Assembly: GCF_055900595.2 (NCBI RefSeq)
Contig: NZ_CM148325.1
Strand: one strand, 5' to 3'
DNA length: 64,000 nucleotides
In this document: one piece after another, positions 3,159-27,918 of the stretch
Position numbering within the stretch: the first letter of the stretch is position 1
Layout: each line of letters begins with the position of its first letter
Position numbers and translations under genes: made by a program
Notes under the pieces: model-generated
What the model saw: only the letters and a program-made list of their open reading frames with translations
Told to the model about the DNA's origin: nothing
Databases searched by the model: none

Positions 3159-3902
3159 ATGACAGAGACAGAATCAGCGATTCTGGCGCACGCCCGGCGA
3201 TGTGCGCCAGCGGAGTCGTGCGGCTTCGTGGTGAGAGCGCCGGAGGGGGAAAGATATTTCCCCTGCGTGAATATCTCCGGTGAGCCGGAGGCGTATTTCC
3301 GGATGTCGCCGGAGGACTGGCTGCAGGCAGAGATGCAGGGTGAGATTGTGGCACTGGTCCACAGTCACCCCGGTGGTCTGCCCTGGCTGAGTGAGGCCGA
3401 CCGGCGGCTGCAGGTGCAGAGTGATTTGCCGTGGTGGCTGGTTTGCCGGGGAGCGATTCACAAGTTCCGCTGTGTGCCACATCTTTCCGGGCGGCGCTTT
3501 GAGCACGGGGTGACGGACTGTTACACGCTGTTCCGGGATGCTTACCATCTGGCGGGGATTGAGATGCCGGATTTTCATCGCGAGGATGACTGGTGGCGTA
3601 ACGGTCAGAATCTCTATCTGGATAATCTGGAGGCCACAGGGCTGTATCAGGTGCCGTTGTCAGCGGCGCAGCCGGGCGATGTGCTGCTGTGCTGTTTTGG
3701 TTCATCGGTGCCGAATCATGCCGCCATTTACTGTGGTGACAGCGAGCTGCTGCACCATATTCCTGAACAACTGAGCAAACGAGAGAGGTACACCGACAAA
3801 TGGCAGCGACGCACACACTCCCTCTGGCGTCACCGGGCATGGCACGCATCTGCCTTTACGGGGATTTACAACGATTTGGCCGCCGCATCGACCTTCGAGT
3901 GA
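3159..3902 (+). CDS. K: phage tail tip assembly protein K (MPN/JAMM plus NlpC/P60 domains)
   Basis: HSHPGG JAMM motif and DCYTLF catalytic Cys region; lambda gpK-like. Lambda K is annotated from the internal Met (here 3303); 3' end overlaps I as in lambda. Confidence 0.85.
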   Translation: MTETESAILAHARRCAPAESCGFVVRAPEGERYFPCVNISGEPEAYFRMSPEDWLQAEMQGEIVALVHSHPGGLPWLSEADRRLQVQSDLPWWLVCRGAIHKFRCVPHLSGRRFEHGVTDCYTLFRDAYHLAGIEMPDFHREDDWWRNGQNLYLDNLEATGLYQVPLSAAQPGDVLLCCFGSSVPNHAAIYCGDSELLHHIPEQLSKRERYTDKWQRRTHSLWRHRAWHASAFTGIYNDLAAASTFE

Positions 3903-4447
3903 AAACGGGGTCCGAAGCCATCCGGGCGCTGGCCATGCAGATCCCGGCGTTTCGTCAGAAACTGAGCGACGGCTGGTACCAGGTACGCATTGCCGGGCGT
4001 GATGCCGGTGAAACCGAATTGTCTGCCCGTCTTAATGAGCCGCTGGCAAATGGTGCCGTGATCCACATCGTGCCGCGTCTGGCGGGAGCTAAAAGTGGCG
4101 GTGTGTTTCAGGTGGTGCTGGGGGCGGCGCTGATTGCGGTGGCATGGTGGAACCCTGTGGGCTGGCTGGGAGCCGCGGCTGTATCGGGTATGTATGCGGC
4201 AGGGGCCAGTATGATCCTGGGCGGAGTGGCGCAGATGCTGGCACCGAAAGCCAGGACGCCCACGGCAGCAAGTACAGATAACGGCAAACAGAACACCTAT
4301 TTCTCCTCACTGGATAACATGGTTGCCCAGGGCAATGTTCTGCCCGTTCTGTACGGTGAAATGCGCGTGGGGTCGCGGGTGGTCTCTCAGGAGATCAGCA
4401 CGGCAGACGAAGGGGATGGTGGTCAGGTTGTGGTGATTGGTCGCTGA
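3800..4447 (+). CDS. I: phage tail assembly protein I
   Basis: MAATHTLPLASPGMARICLYGDLQRFGRRIDLRV... near-identical to the lambda gpI N- and C-termini. Confidence 0.9.
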   Translation: MAATHTLPLASPGMARICLYGDLQRFGRRIDLRVKTGSEAIRALAMQIPAFRQKLSDGWYQVRIAGRDAGETELSARLNEPLANGAVIHIVPRLAGAKSGGVFQVVLGAALIAVAWWNPVGWLGAAAVSGMYAAGASMILGGVAQMLAPKARTPTAASTDNGKQNTYFSSLDNMVAQGNVLPVLYGEMRVGSRVVSQEISTADEGDGGQVVVIGR

Positions 4448-8622: not shown

Positions 8623-9330
8623 GTGCACAGAAAACCCCCAGCTAGGCTGGGGGTTCCGGAAAGCTTTCAGCTTTGAGCCAGTTATTAAAACCCCTTTTGA
8701 TTTGTTAAAACACCTTGCGGTCTGGCAACTGCAAGTGTCAAACAAGAAATCAAAAGGGGGTCCCAATGGGGGACGAAAAGAGCTTAGCGCACACCCGCTG
8801 GAACTGTAAATATCACATAGTTTTTGCGCCGAAATACCGAAGACTGGCGTTTTACGGAGAGAAGCGTAGGGCGATAGGCAGTATTTTGAGAAAGCTGTGT
8901 GAGTGGAAAAGCGTACGGATTCTGGAAGCAGAGTGCTGCGCAGATCATATCCATATGCTTGTGGAAATCCCACCCAAAATGAGCGTATCCGGCTTTATGG
9001 GATATCTGAAAGGGAAAAGCAGTCTGATGCTTTACGAGCAGTTTGGGGATTTGAAATTCAAATACAGAAACAGGGAGTTCTGGTGCCGAGGGTACTATGT
9101 CGATACGGTGGGTAAGAACACGGCGAAGATACAGGACTACATAAAGCACCAGCTTGAAGAGGATAAAATGGGGGAGCAGTTATCGATTCCATATCCGGGC
9201 AGCCCGTTTACGGGCCGTAAGTAACGAAGTTGAATGCAAATGTCAGATCGTATGCGCCTGTTAGGGCGCGGCTGGTAACAGAGCCTTACAGGCGCATTTG
9301 AAAAACCTCCGGCTATGCCGGAGGATATTT
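8623..9330 (+). mobile_element. IS200 insertion sequence (IS200/IS605 family); ends approximate
   Basis: Contains a tnpA matching IS200 Y1 transposase; left-end hairpin CCCCCAGC-tagg-CTGGGGG upstream of tnpA; ~0.7 kb, the expected IS200 size. Confidence 0.8.
8766..9224 (+). CDS. tnpA: IS200 transposase TnpA (HUH/Y1)
   Basis: 152 aa MGDEKSLAHTRWNCKYHIVFAPKYRR...HIHMLVEIPPK, the HUH motif and IS200 TnpA signature. Confidence 0.95.
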   Translation: MGDEKSLAHTRWNCKYHIVFAPKYRRLAFYGEKRRAIGSILRKLCEWKSVRILEAECCADHIHMLVEIPPKMSVSGFMGYLKGKSSLMLYEQFGDLKFKYRNREFWCRGYYVDTVGKNTAKIQDYIKHQLEEDKMGEQLSIPYPGSPFTGRK

Positions 9331-9345
9331 ATTTGTGGAGTGGAT

Positions 9346-11751
9346 ATGGCAGCAGTAAAAATCTCAGGTGTGCTGAAAGATGGTGCGGGAAAACCAATAC
9401 AGAACTGCACTATTCAACTGAAGGCAAAGCGTAACAGCACCACGGTACTGGTGAACACGGTGGCTTCTGAAAATCCGGATGAAGCCGGACGTTACAGCAT
9501 GGATGTTGAGTATGGCCAGTACAGCGTCACCCTGCTGGTTGAAGGTTTTCCGCCTTCACATGCCGGGACCATTACCGTCTATGAAGGCTCCAGACCAGGT
9601 ACGCTGAATGATTTTCTCGGTGCCATGACGGAAGATGATGTCATGCCGGAGGCATTGCGTCGTTTTGAGGCAATGGTGGAAGAAGTGGCACGCAACGCCG
9701 AAGCCGCCTCTCAGAGCGCAGCGGCGGCAAAGAAATCCGAAACTGCAGCGGCATCATCAAAGAACGCGGCGAAAACCTCAGAAACGAATGCAGCTAATAG
9801 TGCACAGGCGGCAGCGACCTCAAAGACTGCATCGGCAAACTCCGCGACAGCAGCCAAAAAATCAGAAACCAACGCGAAAAATAGCGAGACAGCCGCAAAG
9901 ACGAGCGAAACCAACGCAAAGTCCAGCCAGACGGCAGCGAAAACCAGCGAAACGAATGCCAAAGCCAGTGAAACTGCGGCAAAAAACAGCCAGGTTGCAG
10001 CAGCCCAAAGCGAGAGCGCGGCAGCCGGTTCTGCGACTTCAGCAGCTGGATCAGCAACTGCTGCGGCTAACAGCCAGAAAGCTGCGAAGACGAGTGAAAC
10101 TAACGCAAAGTCCAGCCAGACGGCAGCGAAGACCAGCGAAACGAATGCCAAAACCAGCGAAACTGCGGCGAAAAACAGTCAGGATGCAGCAGCCCAAAGC
10201 GAGAGTGCTGCAGCTGGTTCTGCAAGCGCGGCGGCTGCTTCTGCCACTGCATCAGCTAACAGTCAAAAAGCAGCAAAAACCAGTGAAACCAACGCAAAGG
10301 CGAGCGAGACTGCGGCGGCGAACTCGGCGCAAGCATCGGCAGCAAGCCAGACAGCAGCTAAAGCAAGTGAAGACGCAGCCAGAGAGTATGCAAGCCAGGC
10401 AGCGGAGCCGTATAAACAAGTTTTGCAGCCGTTGCCCGATGTGTGGATACCGTTTAATGATTCACTGGATATGATTACGGGCTTTTCGCCATCATATAAA
10501 AAAATTGTTATTGGCGACGATGAAATAACAATGCCTGGCGACAAGATTGTAAAGTTTAAACGCGCATCGAAAGCAACTTACATTAATAAATCTGGTGTGC
10601 TGACAGAGGCTGCCATTGACGAGCCACGATTTGAACGTGATGGCCTGCTTATTGAGGGGCAAAGAACTAACCTGCTAATCAATTCAACAAATCCGACTAA
10701 ATGGAACAAGTCGTCAAATATGATCTTAAGTGCATCAGGTGTAGATGATTTCGGATTCCAGTACGCAAAATTTACATTAAAACCAGAAATGGTAGGGCAA
10801 ATTTCAGCGATTAACATAGTAACCGTTTCCGGCAGTAAAGGTTTTGATGTAACAGGCGGAGAAAAGTATGTAACCATATCATGCAGGGTGCAAAGTGGCA
10901 CTCCAAATTTAAGATGCCGATTACGATTTGAAAACTATGATGGTTCTACCTACACATTCTTAGGTGACGCTTACTTAAATACGACAGATTTATCTATTGA
11001 TAAGACGGGTGGTGCCGCTAATCGCATTACTGCAAGGGCTGTTAAAGATGAAGCAAGCAAATGGATCTTTTTTGAGGCGACAATTAAGGCACTTGATACA
11101 GAAAATATGATAGGTGGAATGGTTCAGTATGCCCCGGCAAAAGGAGTGGGCACTGGCGCGGATGATTATATTTATATTGCGACCCCTCAAGTTGAAGGTG
11201 GGGCGTGCGCTTCATCGTTTATTATAACAGGCGCATCCCCTGTAACACGCGCCAGCGATATTGTGACGGTCCCCATTTCTCTAAATTGGTGCAATCCCGC
11301 TATTAGTTCATTAGCAGAAGTTAATACCAATTGGGATGAATCGCCAAACAAAGAAGGTAGCGCACGTATTCTTAATATTTCCACTACGGGAGATACAACT
11401 GAAATTGCAGATGAAAGTTATATGTATTTGGGGTATACATCTTTGGGAGCACGCGCAATCATTACAAATGGTAAAGGCACTAAAATAGAATATAAAAGCG
11501 TTATAGAACGACCAGAGAGAAAAAGCATTATCGGCTTTAGATTCACAGAAAGTCGAGAATTGTGTGTTGTGGTTAACGGTAATATTGGTGCTAAGGTAGT
11601 TTCTCCTTATAAAAAACACAAATATACAGGAGGCTTCATTAATATTGGTGGTCAATCATCATCCGGCAACCGTCACCTATTTGGACACGTTCGAAATCTG
11701 CGTATTTGGCACAAGGCATTGACTGATGCTCAGATGGGGGAGTCAATCTAA
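9346..11751 (+). CDS. stf: side tail fiber protein (lambda Stf-like N-terminus, Ala/Ser/Thr-rich repeat shaft, divergent AT-rich C-terminal domain)
   Basis: N-terminus MAAVKISGVLKDGAGKPIQNCTIQLKA... matches lambda Stf; shaft has repeated KTSETNAK units; C-terminus ends GHVRNLRIWHKALTDAQM, resembling a LamG/concanavalin-like fold. Confidence 0.85.
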   Translation: MAAVKISGVLKDGAGKPIQNCTIQLKAKRNSTTVLVNTVASENPDEAGRYSMDVEYGQYSVTLLVEGFPPSHAGTITVYEGSRPGTLNDFLGAMTEDDVMPEALRRFEAMVEEVARNAEAASQSAAAAKKSETAAASSKNAAKTSETNAANSAQAAATSKTASANSATAAKKSETNAKNSETAAKTSETNAKSSQTAAKTSETNAKASETAAKNSQVAAAQSESAAAGSATSAAGSATAAANSQKAAKTSETNAKSSQTAAKTSETNAKTSETAAKNSQDAAAQSESAAAGSASAAAASATASANSQKAAKTSETNAKASETAAANSAQASAASQTAAKASEDAAREYASQAAEPYKQVLQPLPDVWIPFNDSLDMITGFSPSYKKIVIGDDEITMPGDKIVKFKRASKATYINKSGVLTEAAIDEPRFERDGLLIEGQRTNLLINSTNPTKWNKSSNMILSASGVDDFGFQYAKFTLKPEMVGQISAINIVTVSGSKGFDVTGGEKYVTISCRVQSGTPNLRCRLRFENYDGSTYTFLGDAYLNTTDLSIDKTGGAANRITARAVKDEASKWIFFEATIKALDTENMIGGMVQYAPAKGVGTGADDYIYIATPQVEGGACASSFIITGASPVTRASDIVTVPISLNWCNPAISSLAEVNTNWDESPNKEGSARILNISTTGDTTEIADESYMYLGYTSLGARAIITNGKGTKIEYKSVIERPERKSIIGFRFTESRELCVVVNGNIGAKVVSPYKKHKYTGGFINIGGQSSSGNRHLFGHVRNLRIWHKALTDAQMGESI
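9860..10330 (+). repeat. tandem imperfect coding repeats (~186-bp units) in the tail fiber shaft
   Basis: Protein repeats SQKAAKTSETNAKSSQTAAKTSETNAK(A/T)SETAAKNSQ...AAAQSESAAAGSA occur at least twice, nearly identical. Confidence 0.7.
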
Positions 11752-12032
11752 TGAAAGATTTAACACTCAAATTTGCCGACAGGGCCGACTTTTCGGCTTT
11801 TATGGGAAGTATTGGCTATTATAATGACGAGTCGATGCAGGATGATATTCTGATTGATGTGATAGGTAACGTGTACAAAGAAACCGGAGAGCTGACTGAA
11901 GATGGCGAACCGGTATGTGTTAAGGAAGATGGATATTTTGTAAACGTGCGCATCATTAAGGATACGCAAATATCGTCATTATTCGATGAATACGCGGTTG
12001 CTGTTGAGCATCAACTTCGTGGCTGGATGTGA
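11751..12032 (+). CDS. hypothetical protein (93 aa) immediately downstream of tail fiber; possible fiber assembly/accessory protein
   Basis: ATG overlaps the stf stop (TAATG); acidic 93-aa product; same low-GC block as the fiber C-terminus. Confidence 0.5.
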   Translation: MKDLTLKFADRADFSAFMGSIGYYNDESMQDDILIDVIGNVYKETGELTEDGEPVCVKEDGYFVNVRIIKDTQISSLFDEYAVAVEHQLRGWM

Positions 12033-12041
12033 GGTAGAGAA

Positions 12042-12746
12042 ATGGCTACATCAACAGTAATTCCGGGAGACATCACCACGCTGAAGGGAGATGTTAGTAA
12101 AGCAAAGGAAGATATTTCCTCTATTAACGGAAAAGTATCAACGCTTCAGACTGATATGGCCAGTGCAAAGCAGGATATCAGCACCAGATACACAAAAACT
12201 GAAGTTGATAATAAGCTGAAAAACAAAGTGGAAGTGAACGATCTGGAAAGTGGTCGTTATGGCGGAGATTTTTACCCGCTGACTGGCCGTGAAGCGTTTT
12301 ATTTATGGGGATTGGGCACAACTACAGCGGCGGCAAATCTTTATCTTAATCCTGACCCTGCAATTTCGTCTGTGCTGCGGTCAACATCGTCTATCCGCTA
12401 TAAACATTCAGTAGAGACGATAGATTCAGAGCACGCCGATCTCATTTTCAGGATGCGCCCTGTGTGGTACAGGTCGCAATGCGAAAATGACAGGCGTGAC
12501 TGGGGATTCTATGGATTGATTGCCGAGGAAGTTGGAGAAATTGCCCCTCAGTTTGTTCACTGGCGACCAGCCAACGAAGATGATGCACCGGAAACCATTT
12601 CCAGCAATGGCCTTGTTGCCGAAGGTGTAATGTACGAACGTCTGGTTGTTCCACTGATTCACCATATCCAGAAGCTGACTGAAAGAGTTGATGAACTTGA
12701 GTCAGAATTAAAGTTGTTATCCGTTTCCCGAAGCGATATCGGATAA
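12042..12746 (+). CDS. coiled-coil protein with C-terminal intramolecular-chaperone (peptidase S74-like) domain; tail-fiber-related
   Basis: N-terminal heptad-like coiled coil; C-terminal SSIRYKHSVETID...LIFRMRPVWYR...GFYGLIAEEV resembles the self-cleaving chaperone domain of endosialidase-type fibers. Confidence 0.6.
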   Translation: MATSTVIPGDITTLKGDVSKAKEDISSINGKVSTLQTDMASAKQDISTRYTKTEVDNKLKNKVEVNDLESGRYGGDFYPLTGREAFYLWGLGTTTAAANLYLNPDPAISSVLRSTSSIRYKHSVETIDSEHADLIFRMRPVWYRSQCENDRRDWGFYGLIAEEVGEIAPQFVHWRPANEDDAPETISSNGLVAEGVMYERLVVPLIHHIQKLTERVDELESELKLLSVSRSDIG

Positions 12747-12756
12747 AGGAGGCGTA

Positions 12757-13050
12757 ATGGATATAACACCTTTCCTTCATGCACTTTGTGCTGTGGCTGC
12801 GCAGGTACTGGTTGGTCTTTTTACCGGAAACTGGGCTTACGGGGCGATAGCTGGTTGTACGTTCTTCATTGCGCGTGAACATACCCAGGCAGAATATCGC
12901 TGGATTGAAATGTTCGGGCATGGCAAGCGTATGAATATGCCGTGGTGGGGCGGTTTTGATCCGCGTGCGTGGGATGTGGCAAGCCTGATGGATTTTGCTG
13001 TGCCGGTGGTGGCGTGTCTGCTGGTCTGGCTGTTGGTTAATCGTGGGTGA
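12757..13050 (+). CDS. small membrane protein (97 aa, two predicted TM segments), function unknown
   Basis: Hydrophobic N- and C-terminal segments; RBS AAGGAGG upstream; tightly packed after the preceding ORF. Confidence 0.5.
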   Translation: MDITPFLHALCAVAAQVLVGLFTGNWAYGAIAGCTFFIAREHTQAEYRWIEMFGHGKRMNMPWWGGFDPRAWDVASLMDFAVPVVACLLVWLLVNRG

Positions 13051-13060
13051 AAAAAGGTGA

Positions 13061-13180
13061 GCTGTATATGCAACGGAGGAAGAAACCTCGTTGCGGGAAG
13101 CCTTGAAGAAGTATCGGGTGTTGCTGAACCGTGTTGATACGTCAACTGCACAGGATATTGAATGGCCAGCACTGCCGTAG
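13061..13180 (+). pseudogene. tfa: tail fiber assembly protein (Tfa) 3' remnant
   Basis: Translates to [36 protein letters not shown], the conserved Tfa C-terminus (as in K-12 TfaQ/TfaR), with no upstream coding part. Confidence 0.75.
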
Positions 13181-13277
13181 GGTAAAACATATAAATTCTA
13201 TAATTAGATGTATCTTTCCATTTACGGCAAGGAAGGGGGCTTGGAAGACGTAAGGCATCTCACACCGAGATTATTTT

Positions 13278-13868
13278 TTATATGTCAGGTGTCTGAAGTT
13301 TTGCTTTGGCTCTTAAAATGGTTTGCCGCGAGGTTTTGAATTCCCGGGCAATGGCACTTATACTTACACCTGACTTAATCCGTTCGAATACCACCTGTTT
13401 CTGTTCTTCATTTAACACAGGTGGTCGACCAAAACGTTTCCCTGCGCCCCGGGCTCTTACTATCCCGGAATGAGTGCGTTCAAGTAAAAGGTCTCGTTCA
13501 AATTCAGCGACTGCTGAAATTACTTGCATCATCATTTTTCCTGTTGGACTGGTCAGGTCAATGCCCCCCAATGCTAAGCAATGCACTCTGATACCTGTTT
13601 CGGTCAGTTGTTCCACTGTTTTCCTGATATCCATTGCATTACAACCAAGGCGATCCAGTTTTGTCACAATCAATTGATCACCACATTTCAGGCGAGCAAG
13701 CAACCGGTTAAAACCAGGACGCTCACTGGTTGCTGCTGAGCCGCTAATGTGTTCTTCGATTATTTGCTGAGGTTTGATTTTAAAACCTGCACTTTCGATT
13801 TCCCGGCGTTGATTTTCGGTGGTCTGATCCAGCGTTGATATCCGACAGTAAGCAAAAATTCGAGACAT
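13278..13868 (-). CDS. pin: serine recombinase / DNA invertase (PinQ/PinR-like)
   Basis: 196 aa [29 protein letters not shown]... resolvase/invertase fold with catalytic Ser and C-terminal HTH; position next to tfa and ydfK matches K-12 pinQ. Confidence 0.9.
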
Positions 13869-14184
13869 AGTGAGACTCTATACGAAATTGGTGTTCATAT
13901 CATAATGCATCTCAGAAAATAATTTTGATTATTTTTGTGCATGTTTGTATGTACACGTTCGAAAATAAACGAATGCGTATGCAACCCCGTAATTTTGGTG
14001 AGACCCAAAATCGATTTTGTGAAAAATGGCTTTAACTCGGTTTGTTTTTCGAGTTCCGGGCGGACTCAAGGAAGAAGAATAGTGTTGCGTGTTATTTTAA
14101 CCAGATTTCAAGTTGTTTGGTCGTGGAAAAGTGGAGCAAAATGTTGTTAAAGTGGAAAAATGATAAAAAAGTAAGTTTATTATA

Positions 14185-14418
14185 TTACATTTTACCATTT
14201 AAATTTTGGTTGTCTTTAAGAACTGATATCGCTGTTTGTAATAATTCTTTGTTATCCAGCCATGATTTTTTCTTTATGTTTCCTTCAATGTAATCAAGCA
14301 ATGTTCTGGTATTGATAGGTCTTCCCTGTTTTGCTACTTCCACTACAGCATCCCCTAGGATAATTCTGACTTCAGGAAGCTGCGCAGGGAACCACTTTAG
14401 GGTGTCTTTTGATTTCAT
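14185..14418 (-). CDS. ydfK: YdfK/YnaE family prophage protein (cold-shock-induced, DUF1737-like)
   Basis: MKSKDTLKWFPAQLPEVRIILGDAVVEVAKQGRPINTRTLLDYIEGNIKKKSWLDNKELL... matches K-12 YdfK; RBS AAGGA upstream of this start, so the longer ORF-track start at 14451 is rejected. Confidence 0.8.
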   Translation of the reverse strand: MKSKDTLKWFPAQLPEVRIILGDAVVEVAKQGRPINTRTLLDYIEGNIKKKSWLDNKELLQTAISVLKDNQNLNGKM

Positions 14419-15203
14419 GAATATATTCCTTAAAATATTATTGATTTTCATTGCGATATTGTATGTCTGATTCAGGATATGTTGACTTATACATCGGTTT
14501 TGTCTGGGTTATTGGATATGCCAATCCCTAATTTTATTAGAGCATGACTAAAAATGCTGAATATGATAAGGAGCGAAGTGATTATCAGTATGCTGTTCAT
14601 ATAGCCTCGAATTATTAATGTGTTATATATGATATAGTTGACAATTTTTATCCTGGGTGTTCTTAAAGTTCGTAGATAAACATTGTCGTTTCAGGTATAC
14701 AGGAATGCTAACAGATGGCGGCAAAAATCAGGCGGTTTATGGCGCAAGCTGAAGTGGCAACTGCAAACTATCTTATGCAGAGACTCTACACGGATTGGGT
14801 TTAAAAGTATACATAGATAACAGTTTTTATCTGAAGAAGAAAAATATCAAGGTGATATAGCCTATATGCCTTTGATGCGGAGGAATGAATGTGATGGGAG
14901 TGATGTATCTGAATAGTTGAAAAACCGCAGACACGCCTTATGCAAGAACGTGCTGCGGTTGGCTGGTAAATTTTTCGATAGTGCGAGTATTGAATGATTT
15001 CCAGCCGTTATTGATTTTACGCGTAACTCCATGAAAAAACTACTTATCTGTTGAGGAGTTTTTTTGGGGCATATATGGGACAGAAATAGGCCCCAGATAG
15101 ACACTGAGATCGAACTTAGGATGCTTTTTAAAAAATGCAACTATCTGAAAAAACCTAGAAAACGCCAAGGAAACCACAGGATGGGAAAAAACACCTGTGA
15201 ATC

Positions 15204-16487
15204 ATGGATTTCCAGTTATATTCGCTCGGCGCAGCGTTAGTGTTTCATGAAATATTTTTTCCTGAATCATCAACGGCAATGGCGTTAATTCTGGCAATGG
15301 GAACCTACGGTGCAGGTTATGTGGCGCGTATTGTCGGAGCATTTATTTTCGGCAAAATGGGCGACAGAATCGGGCGTAAAAAAGTGCTCTTTATTACCAT
15401 CACTATGATGGGGATCTGTACCACCTTAATTGGTGTGCTGCCGACCTATGCACAAATTGGTGTGTTTGCGCCAATTTTGCTGGTGACGCTGCGTATTATT
15501 CAGGGGCTGGGGGCAGGCGCGGAAATTTCCGGTGCCGGTACGATGCTGGCGGAATATGCGCCAAAAGGTAAGCGCGGAATTATCTCCTCATTTGTTGCTA
15601 TGGGGACTAACTGCGGAACCTTGAGCGCAACGGCAATCTGGGCCTTTATGTTCTTCATTCTCAGTAAAGAGGAACTGTTGGCGTGGGGATGGCGTATACC
15701 GTTCCTGGCGAGCGTTGTCGTGATGGTCTTTGCTATCTGGTTGCGTATGAATCTGAAAGAAAGCCCGGTCTTTGAGAAGGTTAACGACAGCAACCAACCG
15801 ACAGCAAAACCTGCACCTGCTGGTAGCATGTTCCAGAGCAAATCCTTCTGGCTGGCAACAGGGCTGCGTTTTGGTCAGGCTGGTAACTCAGGTTTAATTC
15901 AGACTTTCCTTGCAGGCTATTTAGTGCAGACGTTATTGTTTAACAAAGCAATTCCAACAGATGCATTGATGATCAGTTCGATTCTCGGCTTTATGACCAT
16001 TCCGTTCCTTGGTTGGTTATCCGATAAAATTGGTCGCCGGATCCCGTATATTATTATGAATACCTCTGCGATTGTGCTGGCGTGGCCAATGCTTTCTATC
16101 ATCGTAGATAAAAGCTATGCCCCGAGCACCATTATGGTTGCACTGATTGTGATTCATAACTGTGCGGTGCTGGGATTATTTGCTCTGGAAAACATTACCA
16201 TGGCAGAAATGTTCGGCTGTAAAAACCGCTTTACCCGGATGGCCATTTCTAAAGAAATTGGTGGTCTTATCGCTTCCGGTTTTGGTCCTATCCTGGCGGG
16301 TATTTTCTGCACCATGACGGAATCCTGGTATCCGATCGCCATTATGATCATGGCATATTCAGTGATTGGTTTAATCTCTGCGCTGAAAATGCCAGAAGTG
16401 AAAGACCGTGATTTAAGTGCACTGGAAGATGCCGCGGAAGATCAACCGCGTGTTGTAACAGCTGCGCAACCTTCAAGAAGTCTGTAA
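15204..16487 (+). CDS. ydfJ: MFS metabolite:H+ symporter YdfJ, N-terminally truncated at the prophage junction
   Basis: 427-aa ORF matching K-12 YdfJ (MDFQLYSLGAALVFHEIFF...); begins within TM2 of an MHS-family transporter, so the 5' part is missing. Confidence 0.85.
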   Translation: MDFQLYSLGAALVFHEIFFPESSTAMALILAMGTYGAGYVARIVGAFIFGKMGDRIGRKKVLFITITMMGICTTLIGVLPTYAQIGVFAPILLVTLRIIQGLGAGAEISGAGTMLAEYAPKGKRGIISSFVAMGTNCGTLSATAIWAFMFFILSKEELLAWGWRIPFLASVVVMVFAIWLRMNLKESPVFEKVNDSNQPTAKPAPAGSMFQSKSFWLATGLRFGQAGNSGLIQTFLAGYLVQTLLFNKAIPTDALMISSILGFMTIPFLGWLSDKIGRRIPYIIMNTSAIVLAWPMLSIIVDKSYAPSTIMVALIVIHNCAVLGLFALENITMAEMFGCKNRFTRMAISKEIGGLIASGFGPILAGIFCTMTESWYPIAIMIMAYSVIGLISALKMPEVKDRDLSALEDAAEDQPRVVTAAQPSRSL

Positions 16488-16494
16488 ATCCTCC

Positions 16495-16526
16495 ATCCCT
16501 TCTCTTACCGGAGAGGGGATTTTTTA
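16495..16526 (+). terminator. rho-independent terminator after ydfJ
   Basis: ATCCCTTCTC-ttaccg-GAGAGGGGAT stem followed by TTTTT. Confidence 0.6.
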
Positions 16527-16576
16527 TTCATATAACAAAACATGCAGCTTGCCATATTTAAATTTAAGGAATTGTT

Positions 16577-18037
16577 ATGGGAAATAATTTGTTATCAGCA
16601 AAAGCGACGCTCCCTGTTTATGATCGTAATAACCTGGCCCCAAGAATTGTTCATTTAGGCTTTGGTGCATTTCACCGTGCGCATCAGGGCGTGTATGCCG
16701 ATATTCTTGCTACGGAACATTTCAGTGACTGGGGATATTATGAGGTCAATTTAATCGGCGGCGAACAGCAAATTGCCGATTTACAACAGCAAGATAATCT
16801 TTATACCGTTGCGGAAATGTCGGCCGATGCGTGGACGGCTCGCGTCGTTGGCGTCGTTAAAAAAGCCTTGCACATACAAATAGATGGCTTAGAAACCGTG
16901 CTGGCTGCGATGTGTGAACCGCAAATCGCGATTGTCTCTCTGACAATCACCGAAAAAGGGTATTTCCACTCTCCGGCGACCGGACAGTTAATGCTCGATC
17001 ACCCGATGGTCGTTGCCGACGTGCAAAATCCCCACCAGCCGAAAACTGCAACAGGGGTGATTGTTGAGGCGCTGGCTCGCCGTAAAGCGGCAGGACTTCC
17101 CGCATTTACCGTCATGTCATGTGACAACATGCCAGAAAACGGTCATGTTATGCGTGACGTTGTCACTTCCTACGCGCAAGCTGTTGATGTAAAACTGGCA
17201 CAATGGATCGAAGAAAACGTGACTTTCCCATCAACAATGGTGGACCGTATTGTGCCCGCAGTGACGGAGGATACGCTGGCGAAAATCGAACAACTTACCG
17301 GTGTGCGCGATCCTGCTGGCGTTGCCTGTGAACCTTTCCGCCAGTGGGTAATAGAAGATAACTTTGTTGCCGGACGTCCGGAATGGGAAAAAGCGGGAGC
17401 CGAACTGGTTAGTGATGTGCTGCCTTATGAAGAGATGAAGTTGCGCATGCTCAACGGCAGTCATTCATTCCTGGCGTATCTGGGGTATCTTGCCGGATAT
17501 CAGCACATTAATGACTGCATGGAAGATGAACATTATCATCATGCAGCGTATGCCTTGATGTTGCAGGAACAAGCGCCCACGCTGAAAGTGCAGGGCGTTG
17601 ATTTGCAAGATTACGCTAACCGATTAATTGAACGCTATAGCAACCCGGCGCTACGTCATCGAACCTGGCAGATTGCGATGGATGGCAGCCAGAAATTGCC
17701 ACAGCGGATGTTGGATTCTGTTCGCTGGCATCTGGCGCATGACAGCAAGTTCGATCTGCTGGCGCTGGGCGTCGCGGGTTGGATGCGTTATGTCGGTGGT
17801 GTTGATGAACAGGGAAATCAGATAGAAATCAGTGACCCACTGTTACCTGTTATTCAGAAGGCAGTACAAAGTAGTGCTGAAGGGAAAGCGCGCGTCCAGT
17901 CATTGCTGGCGATTAAGGCGATCTTTGGTGATGATTTACCGGGCAATAGCTTGTTTACTGCAAAAGTGACGGAAGCGTACTTGTCTTTATTAGCGCATGG
18001 CGCAAAAGCGACCGTGGCGAAATATTCCGTGAAGTAA
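16577..18037 (+). CDS. ydfI: mannitol dehydrogenase family oxidoreductase YdfI
   Basis: 486 aa; N-terminal [10 protein letters not shown] Rossmann motif of the mannitol dehydrogenase family; K-12 synteny. Confidence 0.9.
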
Positions 18038-20110: not shown

Positions 20111-22156
20111 ATGACAACAATGAATCCTTTCCTTGTGCAAAGCACACTGCCGTATCTGGCTCCCCATTTTGATCAAATTGCCAATCATCACTATCGACCG
20201 GCATTTGATGAGGGAATGCAGCAAAAGCGGGCCGAAATTGCCGCCATTGAGCTCAACCCGCAAACACCTGATTTCAACAATACTATTCTGGCACTGGAGC
20301 AGAGTGGGGAACTGCTGACCCGCGTCACCAGCGTTTTTTTTGCGATGACTGCGGCGCATACCAATGATGAATTACAGCGTCTTGATGAGCAGTTTTCCGC
20401 TGAACTGGCAGAACTGGCTAATGATATCTATCTGAACGGTGAATTATTCGCGCGAGTAGATGCTGTCTGGCAGCGCCGTGAATCCGAGGGGCTTGATAGT
20501 GAATCCATTCGCCTGGTGGAGGTTATTCATCAACGTTTTGTCCTTGCCGGAGCCAAACTTGCACAAGCTGATAAAGCAAAATTAAAAGTTCTTAATACAG
20601 AAGCTGCGACCCTGACCAGCCAGTTTAACCAGCGGTTACTTGCGGCAAATAAATCCGGCGGTCTGGTTCTGGACGATATTGCGCAACTGGCTGGGATGAG
20701 CGAGCAGGAGATTGCGCTGGCGGCAGAGGCGGCTCGCGAGAAAGGTCTGGATAACAAATGGCTTATTCCGCTGCTGAATACCACCCAGCAACCGGCGCTT
20801 GCTGAACTGCGCGATCGCGCGACGCGTGAAAAACTATTCACTGCGGGCTGGACTCGGGCAGAAAAAAATGACGCTAACGATACCCGTGCCATTATTCAAC
20901 GGCTGGTGGAGATCCGCGCGCAGCAGGCAAAACTGCTTGGTTTCCCTCATTATGCTGCATGGAAAATCGCCGATCAGATGGCAAAAACGCCTGAAGCAGC
21001 ACTCAACTTTATGCGGGAAATTGTCCCGGCCGCGCGTAAGCGAGCAGACGATGAACTTGCGTCTATTCAGACGGTTATTGAAAAGCAGCAAGGCGGATTT
21101 ATCGCCCAGCCTTGGGACTGGGCATTTTATGCCGAACAGGTACGGCGAGAGAAATTTGATCTTGATGAGGCGCAGCTCAAGCCATATTTTGAATTAAACA
21201 CGGTATTGAATGAAGGTGTATTCTGGACCGCGAATCAGCTCTTCGGTATTAAGTTTGTCGAACGTTTTGATATTCCTGTCTACCATCCTGACGTTCGTGT
21301 GTGGGAAATTTTTGATCATAATGGCGTGGGGCTGGCGTTATTTTACGGTGATTTCTTCGCCCGTGATTCAAAAAGCGGCGGTGCATGGATGGGCAATTTT
21401 GTTGAGCAATCAACGCTGAATGAAACGCATCCGGTAATTTATAACGTCTGCAATTATCAGAAACCCGCTGCCGGTGAACCTGCGTTGTTACTCTGGGATG
21501 ATGTGATAACCTTATTCCATGAATTTGGTCATACGCTGCACGGCCTTTTTGCCCGCCAGCGTTATACCACGCTTTCCGGTACCAACACGCCGCGTGATTT
21601 TGTCGAATTTCCATCGCAAATCAACGAACACTGGGCAACGTATCCGCAGGTATTCGCTCGCTACGCCCGGCATTATCAGAGCGGGGCAGCAATGCCTGAC
21701 GAACTGCAACAGAAAATGCGTAAAGCCAGCCTGTTCAACAAAGGGTATGAGATGAGCGAACTGCTTAGCGCCGCACTTCTCGATATGCGCTGGCATTGCC
21801 TGGAAGAAAACGAAGCAATACAGGATGTCGATGATTTCGAATTGCGGGCGCTGGTGGCGGAAAATATGGATCTTCCTGCTATACCGCCACGCTATCGCAG
21901 CAGTTATTTCGCCCATATTTTTGGTGGCGGATATGCCGCAGGTTATTACGCTTATCTGTGGACGCAAATGTTGGCCGATGATGGTTACCAGTGGTTTGTT
22001 GAGCAGGGCGGATTAACGCGTGAAAATGGGAGGCGTTTTCGCGAGGCGATCCTTTCCAGAGGTAACAGCGAAGATCTGGAACGCCTGTATCGACAATGGC
22101 GCGGTAAGGCTCCTCAGATTATGCCGATGCTGCAACATCGTGGCTTGAACGTATAA
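20111..22156 (+). CDS. dcp: dipeptidyl carboxypeptidase II (peptidase M3)
   Basis: 681 aa MTTMNPFLVQSTLPYLAPHF... with HEFGH zinc-binding motif; RBS GGAGAAG upstream of 20111. Confidence 0.95.
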   Translation: MTTMNPFLVQSTLPYLAPHFDQIANHHYRPAFDEGMQQKRAEIAAIELNPQTPDFNNTILALEQSGELLTRVTSVFFAMTAAHTNDELQRLDEQFSAELAELANDIYLNGELFARVDAVWQRRESEGLDSESIRLVEVIHQRFVLAGAKLAQADKAKLKVLNTEAATLTSQFNQRLLAANKSGGLVLDDIAQLAGMSEQEIALAAEAAREKGLDNKWLIPLLNTTQQPALAELRDRATREKLFTAGWTRAEKNDANDTRAIIQRLVEIRAQQAKLLGFPHYAAWKIADQMAKTPEAALNFMREIVPAARKRADDELASIQTVIEKQQGGFIAQPWDWAFYAEQVRREKFDLDEAQLKPYFELNTVLNEGVFWTANQLFGIKFVERFDIPVYHPDVRVWEIFDHNGVGLALFYGDFFARDSKSGGAWMGNFVEQSTLNETHPVIYNVCNYQKPAAGEPALLLWDDVITLFHEFGHTLHGLFARQRYTTLSGTNTPRDFVEFPSQINEHWATYPQVFARYARHYQSGAAMPDELQQKMRKASLFNKGYEMSELLSAALLDMRWHCLEENEAIQDVDDFELRALVAENMDLPAIPPRYRSSYFAHIFGGGYAAGYYAYLWTQMLADDGYQWFVEQGGLTRENGRRFREAILSRGNSEDLERLYRQWRGKAPQIMPMLQHRGLNV

Positions 22157-23641: not shown

Positions 23642-24532
23642 ATGATCAAGAAGACAACGGAAATTGATGCCATCTTGTTAAATCTCAATAAGGCTATCGA
23701 TGCCCACTACCAGTGGCTGGTAAGTATGTTTCACAGCGTGGTCGCGAGAGATGCCAGTAAGCCAGAAATAACGGATAACCATTCTTATGGACTGTGCCAG
23801 TTTGGTCGGTGGATTGATCATCTGGGGCCACTCGATAACGATGAATTACCTTACGTTCGGCTAATGGATTCTGCCCATCAACATATGCATAACTGTGGTC
23901 GGGAATTAATGCTGGCTATTGTTGAAAATCACTGGCAGGACGCGCATTTCGACGCCTTTCAGGAAGGGTTGCTTTCTTTTACTGCGGCATTAACCGATTA
24001 CAAAATTTATTTGCTGACGATCCGTAGCAATATGGATGTTTTGACGGGTTTGCCGGGTCGTCGGGTTCTTGATGAATCCTTTGATCATCAGTTACGCAAC
24101 GCTGAACCTCTGAATCTTTATTTAATGTTGTTGGATATTGACCGATTTAAATTGGTTAATGATACCTACGGGCATTTAATCGGCGATGTAGTATTACGCA
24201 CCCTGGCAACTTACTTAGCCAGTTGGACGCGCGATTACGAAACGGTTTATCGCTACGGTGGCGAAGAATTTATCATTATTGTGAAAGCGGCTAATGATGA
24301 AGAAGCATGTCGTGCAGGTGTCAGAATTTGCCAGTTAGTCGATAACCATGCCATCACACATTCTGAAGGGCATATCAACATTACCGTGACTGCTGGTGTG
24401 AGTCGTGCATTTCCTGAAGAGCCTCTGGATGTGGTCATTGGAAAAGCGGACCGGGCAATGTATGAGGGTAAGCAAACCGGAAGAAATCGCTGTATGTTTA
24501 TTGACGAACAAAACGTGATTAACCGAGTTTAA
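23642..24532 (+). CDS. dgcZ: zinc-sensing diguanylate cyclase DgcZ (YdeH)
   Basis: 296 aa MIKKTTEIDAILLNL... with GGEEF motif (RYGGEEF); CZB domain N-terminal. Confidence 0.95.
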   Translation: MIKKTTEIDAILLNLNKAIDAHYQWLVSMFHSVVARDASKPEITDNHSYGLCQFGRWIDHLGPLDNDELPYVRLMDSAHQHMHNCGRELMLAIVENHWQDAHFDAFQEGLLSFTAALTDYKIYLLTIRSNMDVLTGLPGRRVLDESFDHQLRNAEPLNLYLMLLDIDRFKLVNDTYGHLIGDVVLRTLATYLASWTRDYETVYRYGGEEFIIIVKAANDEEACRAGVRICQLVDNHAITHSEGHINITVTAGVSRAFPEEPLDVVIGKADRAMYEGKQTGRNRCMFIDEQNVINRV

Positions 24533-27284: not shown

Positions 27285-27503
27285 TTACATAGCGTGTTGA
27301 TTATAATAGGGCACGCCGAGCGCATCCGACTTATCACTGCCAGTACCCATGTGATTTAAATCAAACGGTGGTTGTTCCTGCGATGGGGGAACAACCACCA
27401 CATTGCCACAGGAAGTAACAACCGGCTGCGTGGTTTGTTCCGCAAAGCTCTGCGCAGAGAAGAGAATAAGCGCAGTTACCATTGCGGATAAAAGTGGTTT
27501 CAT
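27285..27503 (-). CDS. marB: multiple antibiotic resistance protein MarB
   Basis: 72 aa with signal peptide MKPLLSAMVTALILFSAQSFA; position downstream of marA. Confidence 0.9.
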   Translation of the reverse strand: MKPLLSAMVTALILFSAQSFAEQTTQPVVTSCGNVVVVPPSQEQPPFDLNHMGTGSDKSDALGVPYYNQHAM

Positions 27504-27534
27504 GATTGCCTCAGTGACGTTGTCACGTTATCAA

Positions 27535-27918
27535 CTAGCTGTTGTAATGATTTAATGGATGTAAAAAGCGCGATTCGCCCTGCATATTGGTCATCCGGTA
27601 TTTATGTGGCGGAACATCAAAGTAATTTTTGAAGGTTCGGGTCAGAGTTTGTTGCGACTCGAAGCCATATCGTTCTGCCAGATAGAGTATCGGCTCGTTA
27701 CTTTCCTTCAGCTTTTGCGCGATTTCCGTCATCTTACGGCTGCGGATGTATTGGCCTAATGAATGACCGGTTTCTTTTTTAAACATCCGTTGCAGGTGCC
27801 ATTTGGAGTAACCCGAACGCTCTGACACTTTCTCCAGTGACAGTGGCGATTCCAGGTTATCCTCGATCCAGTCCAAAATGCTATGAATGGTAATAGCGTC
27901 AGTATTGCGTCTGGACAT
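27535..27918 (-). CDS. marA: AraC/XylS-family transcriptional activator MarA
   Basis: 127 aa [62 protein letters not shown]...; the longer ORF-track start is rejected. Confidence 0.95.

Follow-up and report, generated by a model that had tools for sequence, protein, structure and literature searches.

Lambdoid prophages are frequently found in the E. coli gene ydfJ, and the right-hand junction between ydfJ and such a prophage is already known and belongs to textbook knowledge. In E. coli K-12 MG1655 the site is occupied by Qin (1632277..1652745), a 20.5-kb remnant with a broken intQ, which carries pinQ (b1545), ydfK (b1544) and ynfT (b4748) next to ydfJ (b1543). The truncation of ydfJ by 28 codons has already been published (PMC6379469). 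Another K-12 prophage, Rac, integrates in ttcA, and its right end has the order pinR-ynaE-ynaM-ttcC, in which ynaE and ynaM are paralogues of ydfK and ynfT.

We analysed a window of 64 kb (64,000 nucleotides, contig NZ_CM148325.1), and followed up the segment between its pin gene and ydfJ. The window has the same insertion site and core as Qin and the same gene order (pin-ydfK-ynfT-attR-ydfJ'-ydfI), and the identity to K-12 over 13869-15300 is 98.4%. We regard 13869-15212 as very probably the attR end (the right, tail-fibre/b-region end) of a lambdoid prophage in ydfJ, at the Qin site of K-12. The two elements also differ. In contrast to the Qin remnant, the window element retains tail genes of the lambda type upstream, and among complete relatives it is closest to prophages of ~45 kb and isolated phages (Tritos, HannyBb). 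K-12 has neither the T->C change found at 15203 in the window nor an intact copy of the 29-codon ORF of the window. The right end of Rac is 99% identical to the window from pin through a terminator stem (13869-14962), with the terminator about 200 bp from the att site. Beyond 14962 Rac is unrelated; it has another att arm, and the conserved 5' part is missing from its copy of the cassette described below.

The att core (15202-15212) was located by aligning attB, attL and attR from four genomes, and attP is contiguous in phage Tritos. In K-12, strain Lstone01 and most strains, the core reads TTATGGATTTC. The sequence (TT)ATGGATTTC is common to attB (strain 18KM2445) and to attL and attR of both K-12 and Lstone01, and the attR of the window has the 9-bp ATGGATTTC exactly, at 15204-15212, as the first 9 nt of the ydfJ ORF. 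Consistently, the feature 'cryptic prophage Qin' of K-12 starts at 1632277, which corresponds to window position 15212, 9 nt within the ydfJ ORF. The preliminary description had expected the core around 15150-15203, and the alignment moves it into the ORF. In Tritos the core reads ATGCATTTC, and given this variant and the change at 15203 the crossover can be placed only somewhere within the core.

The unoccupied site was also found. When the host flank from the attL side was joined to the ydfJ of the window, this query gave an unbroken match through left flank, core and right flank in 2010 of 5426 complete E. coli genomes (99.6-99.7% identity), where an annotated 455-aa ydfJ is present. Overall, ~37% of complete E. 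coli genomes have an empty ydfJ site. As the window does not extend to attL and int, we infer these from near-identical genomes and phages. The closest complete genome (NZ_CM139235) contains a ~45-kb prophage at the ydfJ site with int and xis beside attL. In the isolated phages Tritos, HannyBb and mEp460_ev081, the sequence 13869-15212 is contiguous with attP, int and xis, and the Tritos order pin-ydfK-attP-int-xis is uninterrupted. In the proposed mechanism, a tyrosine integrase would insert the prophage at codons 28-31 of ydfJ by recombining attP with attB across (TT)ATGGATTTC, and precise excision would restore ydfJ. From the core inward, along the minus strand, the phage end would consist of the P arm (~180 bp), a cassette of ~100 nt, the ynfT-ydfK promoter and leader, ynfT and ydfK, and the pin invertase gene. 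The junction is useful as a clean example that is resolved in full, from core and arms to attP, attB and the small proteins of both ends.

The truncated gene ydfJ' (15204-16487, plus strand) comprises the 3' 427 codons of a 455-codon gene for an MHS-family MFS transporter, as identified by BLASTP, PGAP and Pfam MFS_1. Residues 1-427 of the ORF equal residues 29-455 of the intact 455-aa YdfJ (426/427 identical by BLASTP); its ATG at 15204 is Met29 of the native gene, within the core, and 28 codons are missing. The preliminary description had proposed that prophage insertion displaced the 5' part of ydfJ at the site that Qin occupies in K-12. The alignment with full-length YdfJ bears this out, since no intact N-terminus is present at 15204, and the K-12 boundary matches. 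It had also placed the start of the ORF inside TM2. Position 2 of Pfam MFS_1 falls on residue 21 of intact YdfJ, and the alignment of the truncated ORF to this profile begins no earlier than position 33. Motif A of the MFS family (GDRIGRK), which follows TM2, is at residues 81-87 of the intact protein. The MFS_1 coordinates, the position of motif A and hydropathy together put the break within TM1, and the ORF has neither the complete N-terminus nor the intact TM1 of a full-length transporter of this family. Two details are corrected here, TM1 instead of TM2 and a core inside the ORF.

After integration, the ydfJ promoter, the RBS and the first 28 codons would remain at the far (attL) end, and the attR end would keep a promoterless ORF of 427 codons with the first half of TM1 gone. 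At the attL end of K-12, the 5' codons of ydfJ read into phage DNA as the 36-aa YnfP. Because the first half of TM1 is missing, the product of ydfJ' is most likely inactive, judging from its sequence. That ydfJ' is no pseudogene but encodes a working transporter with a shortened N-terminus, expressed from a promoter at the phage end, seems improbable to us. The K-12 reference does retain ydfJ as a 427-aa CDS ('putative transporter YdfJ'), so residual function is possible, and the ORF is intact, with an identity of 99.8% to the full-length allele, but such a value is expected anyway for a recent or reversible insertion. The ORF is without its N-terminus and some 8-10 residues of TM1, no Shine-Dalgarno sequence precedes its ATG, the native promoter is at the opposite prophage end, and PGAP labels the gene 'incomplete; missing N-terminus' in every close relative.

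Next to the core lies the P arm of attP (15021-15201), which is specific to ydfJ-integrating phages and was delimited by homology and by TGGGRCM repeats. The homology to Rac reaches 14962, and that to dinI-carrying phages reaches 15044. An inverted repeat, CACAGG-N13-CCTGTG, is within the arm at 15175-15199. Three copies of TGGGRCM, candidate arm-type Int sites recognised by their recurrence, are at 15065-15071 and 15076-15082 on the plus strand and at 15089-15095 on the minus strand. The same heptamer occurs twice in the P' arm beside int, at 3691-3708 in locus L004 (a ~45-kb prophage with host flanks) and at 3904-3921 in Tritos. The 49.9 kb of L004 have only 9 matches against 26 expected, and 5 of the 9 are in the two arms; with three copies in the P arm and two in the P' arm, the motif is strongly clustered. 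Among Stx2 phage arms, TGGGGCATATATGGGACA is invariant against an identity of about 78% elsewhere, and there is a mismatch in the third (inverted) copy. The cluster at 15060-15110 probably consists of arm-type Int sites, and TGGGRCM can be proposed as a candidate arm-type site of the ydfJ-specific integrase.

The preliminary description had read 15060-15110 as a hairpin. TGGGGC and GCCCCA are able to pair there, and a scan gave a weak terminator-like site on the minus strand (15109-15091), yet terminator-like sites were found at the frequency of chance (2 found, 2.4 expected). The fold reached a z of only -1.8 on either strand, and 9-10 of 200 shuffles were as stable. In addition, the heptamer forms direct repeats and is found in the other att arm too, and in the diverged arms the direct copies are invariant while the inverted copy, which a hairpin would require, is mismatched. 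An RNA hairpin or terminator in place of protein-binding DNA sites is highly improbable at this position, and a DNA role of TGGGRCM, as candidate Int sites, is the preferred reading.

The other hairpin of the preliminary description, at about 14925-14965, was confirmed. It lies at the end of a conserved lambdoid cassette of ~100 nt (14919-15020, minus strand), which has an invariant 5' part (GUAAAAUC...GGCUGGAAAUCAUUCAAUACUCGCACUAUCG...CCAGCC) and a stem (14960-14923) followed by UUUUUC down to 14919. The whole cassette folds with a dG of -34.3 kcal/mol (z -5.1). For the hairpin 14923-14960 the dG was -20.7 kcal/mol (z -4.3), and none of 200 shuffles was equally stable. On the minus strand the stem AACCGCAGCACG...CGUGUCUGCGGUU is followed by UUUC, as in intrinsic terminators. 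T-rich tails were present in 45 of 61 variants on the minus strand versus 2 of 61 on the other strand, and they persist on non-homologous downstream sequence.

The stem is also maintained by covariation. RNAalifold on an alignment of 79 sequences returned only 6 pairs, with indels in the loop, and a hand-written structure was used for the covariation test. Both sides have changed in 6 of 12 pairs, and 49 compensatory cells were counted, compared with 13.7 in shuffles (0 of 500 reached the observed value). In the stem 94% of cells were paired, compared with 26-55% in slid controls. The one-sided changes (53 cells) are G-U wobbles on the minus strand. The first helix of the cassette showed no compensatory change in the same test, and we do not claim it as a structure. 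Published Term-seq data of K-12 give RNA 3' ends at 1632571 and 1632574 (+), which correspond to 14919 and 14916 (-) of the window, directly after GCGGUUUUUC; these ends were mapped on the K-12 copy of the cassette, in a strain other than that of the window. No 3' end for the Rac copy of the terminator is in the K-12 Term-seq list. These results indicate that the hairpin 14923-14960 is an intrinsic terminator of the minus strand.

The only Rfam match in the region points to the opposite strand. The Shigella chromosome-encoded sRNA CssrB (RF02799) matched 14820-14957 on the plus strand, and the consensus of its 3' hairpin is nearly identical to the cassette hairpin, which could then be the 3' end of a CssrB-type sRNA and no minus-strand terminator. 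We consider this very unlikely and rejected the assignment. The match scores 28.7 bits (gathering threshold 76), only the hairpin aligns well, and the remaining model is unaligned. In plus-strand orientation, GGCTGG and no T-run comes after the stem; an A-run ahead of it, the counterpart of a T-tail for that strand, is seen in 2 of 61 variants only, against 45 of 61 for the minus strand. The 53 one-sided wobble cells would become A-C mismatches if the plus strand were the RNA. The K-12 3' ends fall on the equivalent of the minus strand of the window. A literature search on CssrB returned unrelated papers only.

A total of 212 phage records contain the cassette, among them those of lambda, HK97, phi80, phiP27 and Stx phages, and more than 120 IMG/VR contigs have it as well. 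Its loci were gathered with an 18-nt exact anchor inside the cassette, a choice that makes conservation look higher than it is. Termination is not universal for the cassette, because the copy of lambda (24162-24256) is without the U-tract. In dinI-carrying lambdoid phages (2H10, PhiR63_1, Stx2_499 and many IMG/VR contigs), the cassette starts about 10 nt past the dinI stop and supplies the dinI terminator. The window, in contrast, has no dinI, and only about 24 nt (15021-15044) show weak similarity to the last dinI codons; this remnant suggests that dinI was deleted. The cassette marks a recurrent module junction, and the K-12 3' end that Term-seq left without a gene is part of this terminator cassette, which lambda and more than 200 phages have in common.

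The position of the cassette resembles that of tI/sib in lambda. In both cases int and xis are transcribed toward attP, a stable hairpin with a U-run is 150-290 nt past the core on the b-region side, and integration moves the hairpin to attR, away from int. In the circular phage, the cassette terminator is the first one downstream of int and xis past attP, which makes it the equivalent of tI by position. In the prophage it is parted from int, like sib in lambda. The likeness is positional only. The cassette has no sequence similarity to lambda 27480-27600, and HK97 has both elements, with the annotated sib (21042-21091) adjoining the cassette (20943-21041) as a distinct element. The hairpin was rejected as a homologue of lambda sib.

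A further question is whether the cassette acts only as a terminator. It may be a functional phage RNA, either an sRNA (3'-UTR-derived or stand-alone) or a sib-like retroregulator of the upstream gene, in which an invariant 30-nt stretch (AAAUCAUUCAAUACUCGCACUAUCG) would serve base pairing or protein binding; we regard this as a tentative possibility, less likely than not. Its 5' part is near-invariant across phages with unrelated flanks on both sides, although the anchor used for collection contributes to this impression. Outside the anchor, the cassette retains 78-88% identity in pairs with only 64% identity at dinI third positions, but repeated recombination at the module junction could account for such conservation without selection on the RNA. 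The K-12 3' end was classed as 'orphan' by Term-seq (no gene attached) and was found in 3 of 3 growth conditions. Hfq-bound RNAs are known from the regions of ttcC-ynaE and the ydfK leader (PMC4152368), but these may be the ydfK leader instead of the cassette. The cassette occupies the tI/sib position relative to int in the ydfJ-site phage; against a sib-like role, true sib is a separate neighbour in HK97. No promoter was identified for a cassette RNA, and its first helix is without compensatory change.

The broader proposal, an unrecognised lambdoid regulatory RNA shared by lambda, HK97, phi80, phiP27, Stx phages and hundreds of prophages, is in our view rather unlikely. The same low likelihood attaches to its specific form, in which a near-invariant 30-nt single-stranded or loop segment would combine with the covarying terminator, and the RNA would be a retroregulator of int here and of dinI elsewhere, or a 3'-UTR-derived or stand-alone RNA. 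If the cassette is a functional RNA, a conserved phage-encoded regulator would have been overlooked even in lambda. The cassette sequence strings gave no hit in the literature searched, and the text on the prophage Pas sRNAs of EPEC (bioRxiv 10.64898/2026.05.13.724894) has no matching sequence or context. For the hairpin itself, termination on the minus strand remains the preferred function.

The segment 13869-15203 (1335 bp) has a GC content of 0.36, the lowest among all 1335-bp windows of the 64 kb (median 0.49; a fraction of 0.0008 is as low), in agreement with the earlier view of a very AT-rich prophage end of ~1.3 kb. The gene at its left border (13278-13868, minus strand) encodes a pinQ-type serine DNA invertase of 196 aa (an ORF annotated by RefSeq as pinQ, recombinase family protein). 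Near the tail-fibre genes (9200-13900), a search for Pin-type inverted repeats gave one weak pair only. Between pin and ydfK is an AT-rich spacer (13869-14184; GC 0.29-0.38 in 200-bp windows), which is 99% identical to the Rac copy of K-12 and has no annotated feature in RefSeq relatives. The gene ydfK, which the preliminary description had placed in this segment, is indeed there (14185-14418, minus strand). RefSeq gives it as a 77-aa 'cold shock protein YdfK', the product lies within an 88-aa ORF, and a profile search of Pfam and NCBIfam found no model match for it.

The preliminary description overlooked ynfT (14487-14600, minus strand), a hydrophobic small protein of 37 aa that is already in RefSeq, in EcoCyc-derived annotation (K-12 b4748) and in Pfam, and is among the listed E. 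coli small proteins (PMC6001520). It belongs to the YnaM/YnfT family, with 96.2 bits against Pfam PF23676 (cut-off 27) and 63.9 bits against NCBIfam NF041477 (cut-off 35), and GAGG is 5-6 nt upstream of its ATG. The 29-codon ORF singled out earlier does exist (14715-14804, plus strand, antisense to the ynfT leader), but it does not hold as a small gene. Both K-12 copies, in Qin and in Rac, start with GTG, the Qin copy also contains a TAG at codon 22, and in 2H10, PhiR63_1 and EC2641 the ATG is changed to ATA with a TAA at codon 19. With start and frame lost in the diverged (86%-identical) copies and no Pfam match, we rejected it as a conserved gene. The ORFs at 14862-15140 (-), 15064-15240 (+) and 14042-14293 (+) have no meaningful Pfam match.

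Upstream of ynfT is the ynfT-ydfK leader with a predicted sigma-70 promoter (14601-14835, minus strand), for which a promoter scan gave -35 TTCAGA (14835-14830) and -10 TATACT (14811-14806). Both hexamers are unchanged in seven copies whose overall identity is 86-99%. Binding of Hfq has been reported for a '5' UTR-ydfK' RNA, which was suggested to be a riboswitch-like element (PMC4152368). Another orphan 3' end of the K-12 Term-seq data, 1632744 (+), corresponds to about 14746 (-) of the window and lies inside this leader.

The AT-rich stretch of 1.3 kb lies between a serine invertase gene (pinQ, 13278-13868, minus strand) and an MFS transporter ORF of 427 codons (ydfJ', 15204-16487, plus strand), and a mannitol-dehydrogenase-family gene lies to the right of the latter in 13000-16800. 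The GC content of 13869-15203 was 0.36, which was the lowest among all 1335-bp windows of the 64 kb (median 0.49). RefSeq genomes with 99.4-99.6% identity over 13200-16600 have the annotated order pinQ, ydfK, ynfT, ydfJ, ydfI, with ydfJ labelled 'incomplete; missing N-terminus'. The same order is found in K-12 MG1655, where it forms the end of the cryptic prophage Qin. The GC minimum and the matching annotation and order showed that the basic observation of the preliminary description, an AT-rich prophage end next to a truncated ydfJ, holds.

The closest complete genome carries a lambdoid prophage of ~45 kb at the ydfJ site; its integrase and excisionase genes adjoin attL, and its tail genes lead up to pin. 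In the isolated phages Tritos, HannyBb and mEp460_ev081, 13869-15212 is present with 98-99.6% identity and continues through attP into int and xis (minus strand). The segment is the end of a real phage element, and this prophage together with the contiguous isolated phages indicated that the final 15 kb of such a prophage lie in the window. Similarity along the segment forms a mosaic: K-12 Rac matches at 99% identity over 13869-14962, the dinI-carrying phages 2H10, PhiR63_1 and EC2641 are ~86% identical as far as 15044, and 15045-15212 was found specific to ydfJ-integrating elements.

To define the junction, the attL sides of K-12 and Lstone01, their attR sides, the window and the unoccupied allele (intact ydfJ without prophage) were compared. 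ATGGATTTC was common to all compared att sequences and was lengthened to TTATGGATTTC in all but the window, which differs by T->C at 15203. When the K-12 attL-side host flank was joined to the window ydfJ as an empty-site query, it matched in one piece in 2010 of 5426 complete E. coli genomes (99.6-99.7% identity), all with an annotated 455-aa ydfJ adjoining rspB. The window ORF corresponds to residues 29-455 of this intact YdfJ (426 of 427 identical), and the alignment gave no intact N-terminus at 15204. These results indicated that 28 ydfJ codons are missing, that the ATG at 15204 corresponds to Met29 of the native gene and falls within the core, and that the att core lies at 15204-15212, inside the ORF, not at 15150-15203 as first proposed. 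Displacement of the ydfJ 5' part by a prophage at the Qin site was confirmed. The annotated boundary of Qin is 9 nt inside the ydfJ ORF, and loss of 28 ydfJ codons and the promoter has been published for Qin (PMC6379469). The junction is a Qin-type attR, already annotated and published.

The attP core of Tritos (3826-3836 in its locus) is TTATGCATTTC versus TTATGGATTTC, and the window attR has TC, not TT, at 15202-15203; given these differences, either the core tolerates single changes or mutations arose after integration. At the far end, the displaced ydfJ 5' part runs into phage DNA to give the annotated 36-aa YnfP (MTIEKHERSTKDLVKAAVSGWLGTALEFMDF followed by KSHAC), which is a chimera of YdfJ residues 1-31 and 5 phage-arm residues (22728-22838 of L002, the K-12 attL region, outside the window). 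YnfP has an entry among E. coli small proteins (PMC6001520). Among the 5426 complete genomes, ~37% have intact ydfJ and ~36% have the same pin-ydfK-ydfJ' junction; others have different prophage ends at ydfJ, for example those of Stx2 phages that carry dinI and nleC.

The break had been placed inside TM2 of the transporter. Pfam MFS_1 aligned to intact YdfJ with profile position 2 at residue 21, and to the truncated ORF only from profile position 33. Hydropathy gave a first hydrophobic segment at ~residues 15-47 and a second at ~52-78, followed by GDRIGRK, which is MFS motif A, located in the TM2-TM3 loop. Taken together, the profile coordinates, the hydropathy and the motif position map the break at residue 29 to the middle of TM1.

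The hairpin flagged near 14925-14965 does exist: 14923-14960 folds stably on either strand. It closes a cassette of ~100 nt on the minus strand (15020 to 14919), which was collected from more than 120 IMG/VR contigs and phage records, and 79 distinct copies were aligned. Several lines of evidence place the function of the hairpin on the minus strand, where UUUUUC directly follows the stem. Stem pairing is kept through differing sequences (CCGCAG/CUGCGG, CCGUGG/CUACGG, CCGCGG, CCGCCG/CGGCGG and others), with both sides changed in 6 of 12 stem pairs. We counted 49 compensatory cells versus 13.7 ± 6.7 in shuffles (0 of 500), and 94% of the stem cells were paired versus 26-55% in slid controls. 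One-sided changes are G-U wobbles on the minus strand and would be A-C mismatches on the plus strand. Homology among many phages stops exactly at the stem base; the unrelated sequence downstream is T-rich in 45 of 61 variants, and the upstream A-run that a plus-strand terminator would need was present in 2 of 61. For each of three growth conditions, published Term-seq data (PMC7815308 supplementary file 1) give orphan RNA 3' ends at K-12 1632571 and 1632574 (+). They correspond to 14919 and 14916 (minus strand), directly after GCGGUUUUUC. The hairpin is a working intrinsic terminator. Our modest addition is that the flagged hairpin and the orphan K-12 end belong to a terminator cassette common to lambdoid phages.

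The whole cassette folds with a dG of -34.3 kcal/mol (z -5.1), and its 5' part (GUAAAAUC...GGCUGGAAAUCAUUCAAUACUCGCACUAUCG...CCAGCC) is nearly invariant. There is a single copy in the window, and copies are present in 212 phage records, including lambda (24162-24256, between ea31 and ea47; 1763-1857 in locus L013), HK97 (20943-21041, directly past the annotated sib site), HK633 (inside the region annotated attP), phi80, phiP27, cdtI and many Stx phages. The lambda copy shows compensatory stem changes (AGCC...GGCU) and has no U-run after the stem. Most commonly the cassette starts ~10 nt past the dinI stop codon; the window copy comes after the att arm. At 15021-15044, ~24 nt weakly resemble (~65-70%) the 3' end of dinI of related phages, its last codons and stop codon. 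This similarity suggests that a dinI gene formerly separated the att arm from the cassette and was deleted in this lineage.

In the circular phage, the cassette terminator is the first that follows int and xis downstream and lies 250-290 nt beyond the core, compared with 150-190 nt for lambda tI/sib. As the first terminator after int/xis it can be regarded as the tI equivalent, in position only. Integration parts it from int, as with lambda sib, but the two are not homologous. In diverged pairs, cassette conservation exceeded that of dinI coding positions, with loci picked by an anchor inside the element, so a regulatory-RNA role of the cassette is possible but unproven. Such a functional RNA would be the sole mildly novel reading left. 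No compensatory changes were seen in the first helix of the 79-copy alignment, and no Rfam family matched the cassette on the minus strand. CssrB was rejected as its identity: that model aligned to the stem alone, and on the plus strand (28.7 bits versus a threshold of 76).

The second proposed hairpin, 15060-15110, was not significant as an RNA fold (z ~-1.8 on both strands). Its repeat arms are formed by copies of TGGGRCM at 15065-15071 (+), 15076-15082 (+) and 15089-15095 (-). Several findings suggest a role at the DNA level. Two further copies stand in tandem next to int, in the second att arm (3691-3708 in L004, the 49.9-kb locus with the whole prophage; 3904-3921 in Tritos). L004 contains 9 copies versus 26 expected, 5 of them within the two att arms; the window contains 16 versus 30.7 expected, 3 of them within 31 bp at 15065-15095. 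In ydfJ-integrated Stx2 phages, whose arms are only ~78% identical, TGGGGCATATATGGGACA is invariant and homology is lost to the left of it. With recurrence in both arms, clustering and conservation, the TGGGRCM copies are good candidates for arm-type integrase sites, and this candidate motif is a second modest addition. Outside the att arms, TGGGRCM is rarer than expected in both the window and L004. An inverted repeat, CACAGG-N13-CCTGTG (15175-15199), adjoins the core and is mostly retained in the same Stx2 phages.

ynfT (37 aa, 14487-14600, minus strand) matched Pfam PF23676 and NCBIfam NF041477 well over the cut-offs. It is annotated in K-12 and GAGG precedes its ATG. The ynfT/ydfK leader is strongly conserved, with a predicted promoter (-35 at 14835-14830, -10 at 14811-14806, minus strand). 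Another orphan K-12 Term-seq end, 1632744 (+), corresponds to ~14746 (-) within this leader, ~50 nt past the predicted promoter. Hfq binding was reported for the '5' UTR-ydfK' and 'ttcC-ynaE' RNAs, which were proposed as riboswitch-like elements (PMC4152368). The 29-codon ORF offered as an example of small genes (14715-14804, plus strand) is antisense to this leader and stays open in only some homologous copies: the K-12 Qin copy starts with GTG and is interrupted by TAG at codon 22, and in the 86%-identical copies ATA replaces ATG and TAA occurs at codon 19. We rejected it as a gene on these grounds. In its main lines the preliminary description was correct. Four points needed mending: the position of the break (in TM1), that of the core (within the ORF), this unsupported ORF and the overlooked ynfT.

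On the other side of the segment, the pin invertase is intact, and the adjoining tail-fibre assembly gene (in the region 12042-13180) is a C-terminal fragment only, a pseudogene in the annotation of relatives. No long inverted repeats were found flanking the tail-fibre region, with one weak 23-nt pair at 9241/11225. Given the gene fragment and this result, the pin invertible segment looks degenerate. A partial match to Rfam IS009 (RF02111) lies just before pin at 13048-13146 (+), between a 97-aa hypothetical ORF and the tail-fibre-assembly fragment (63.7 bits, E 3e-13; gathering score 117).
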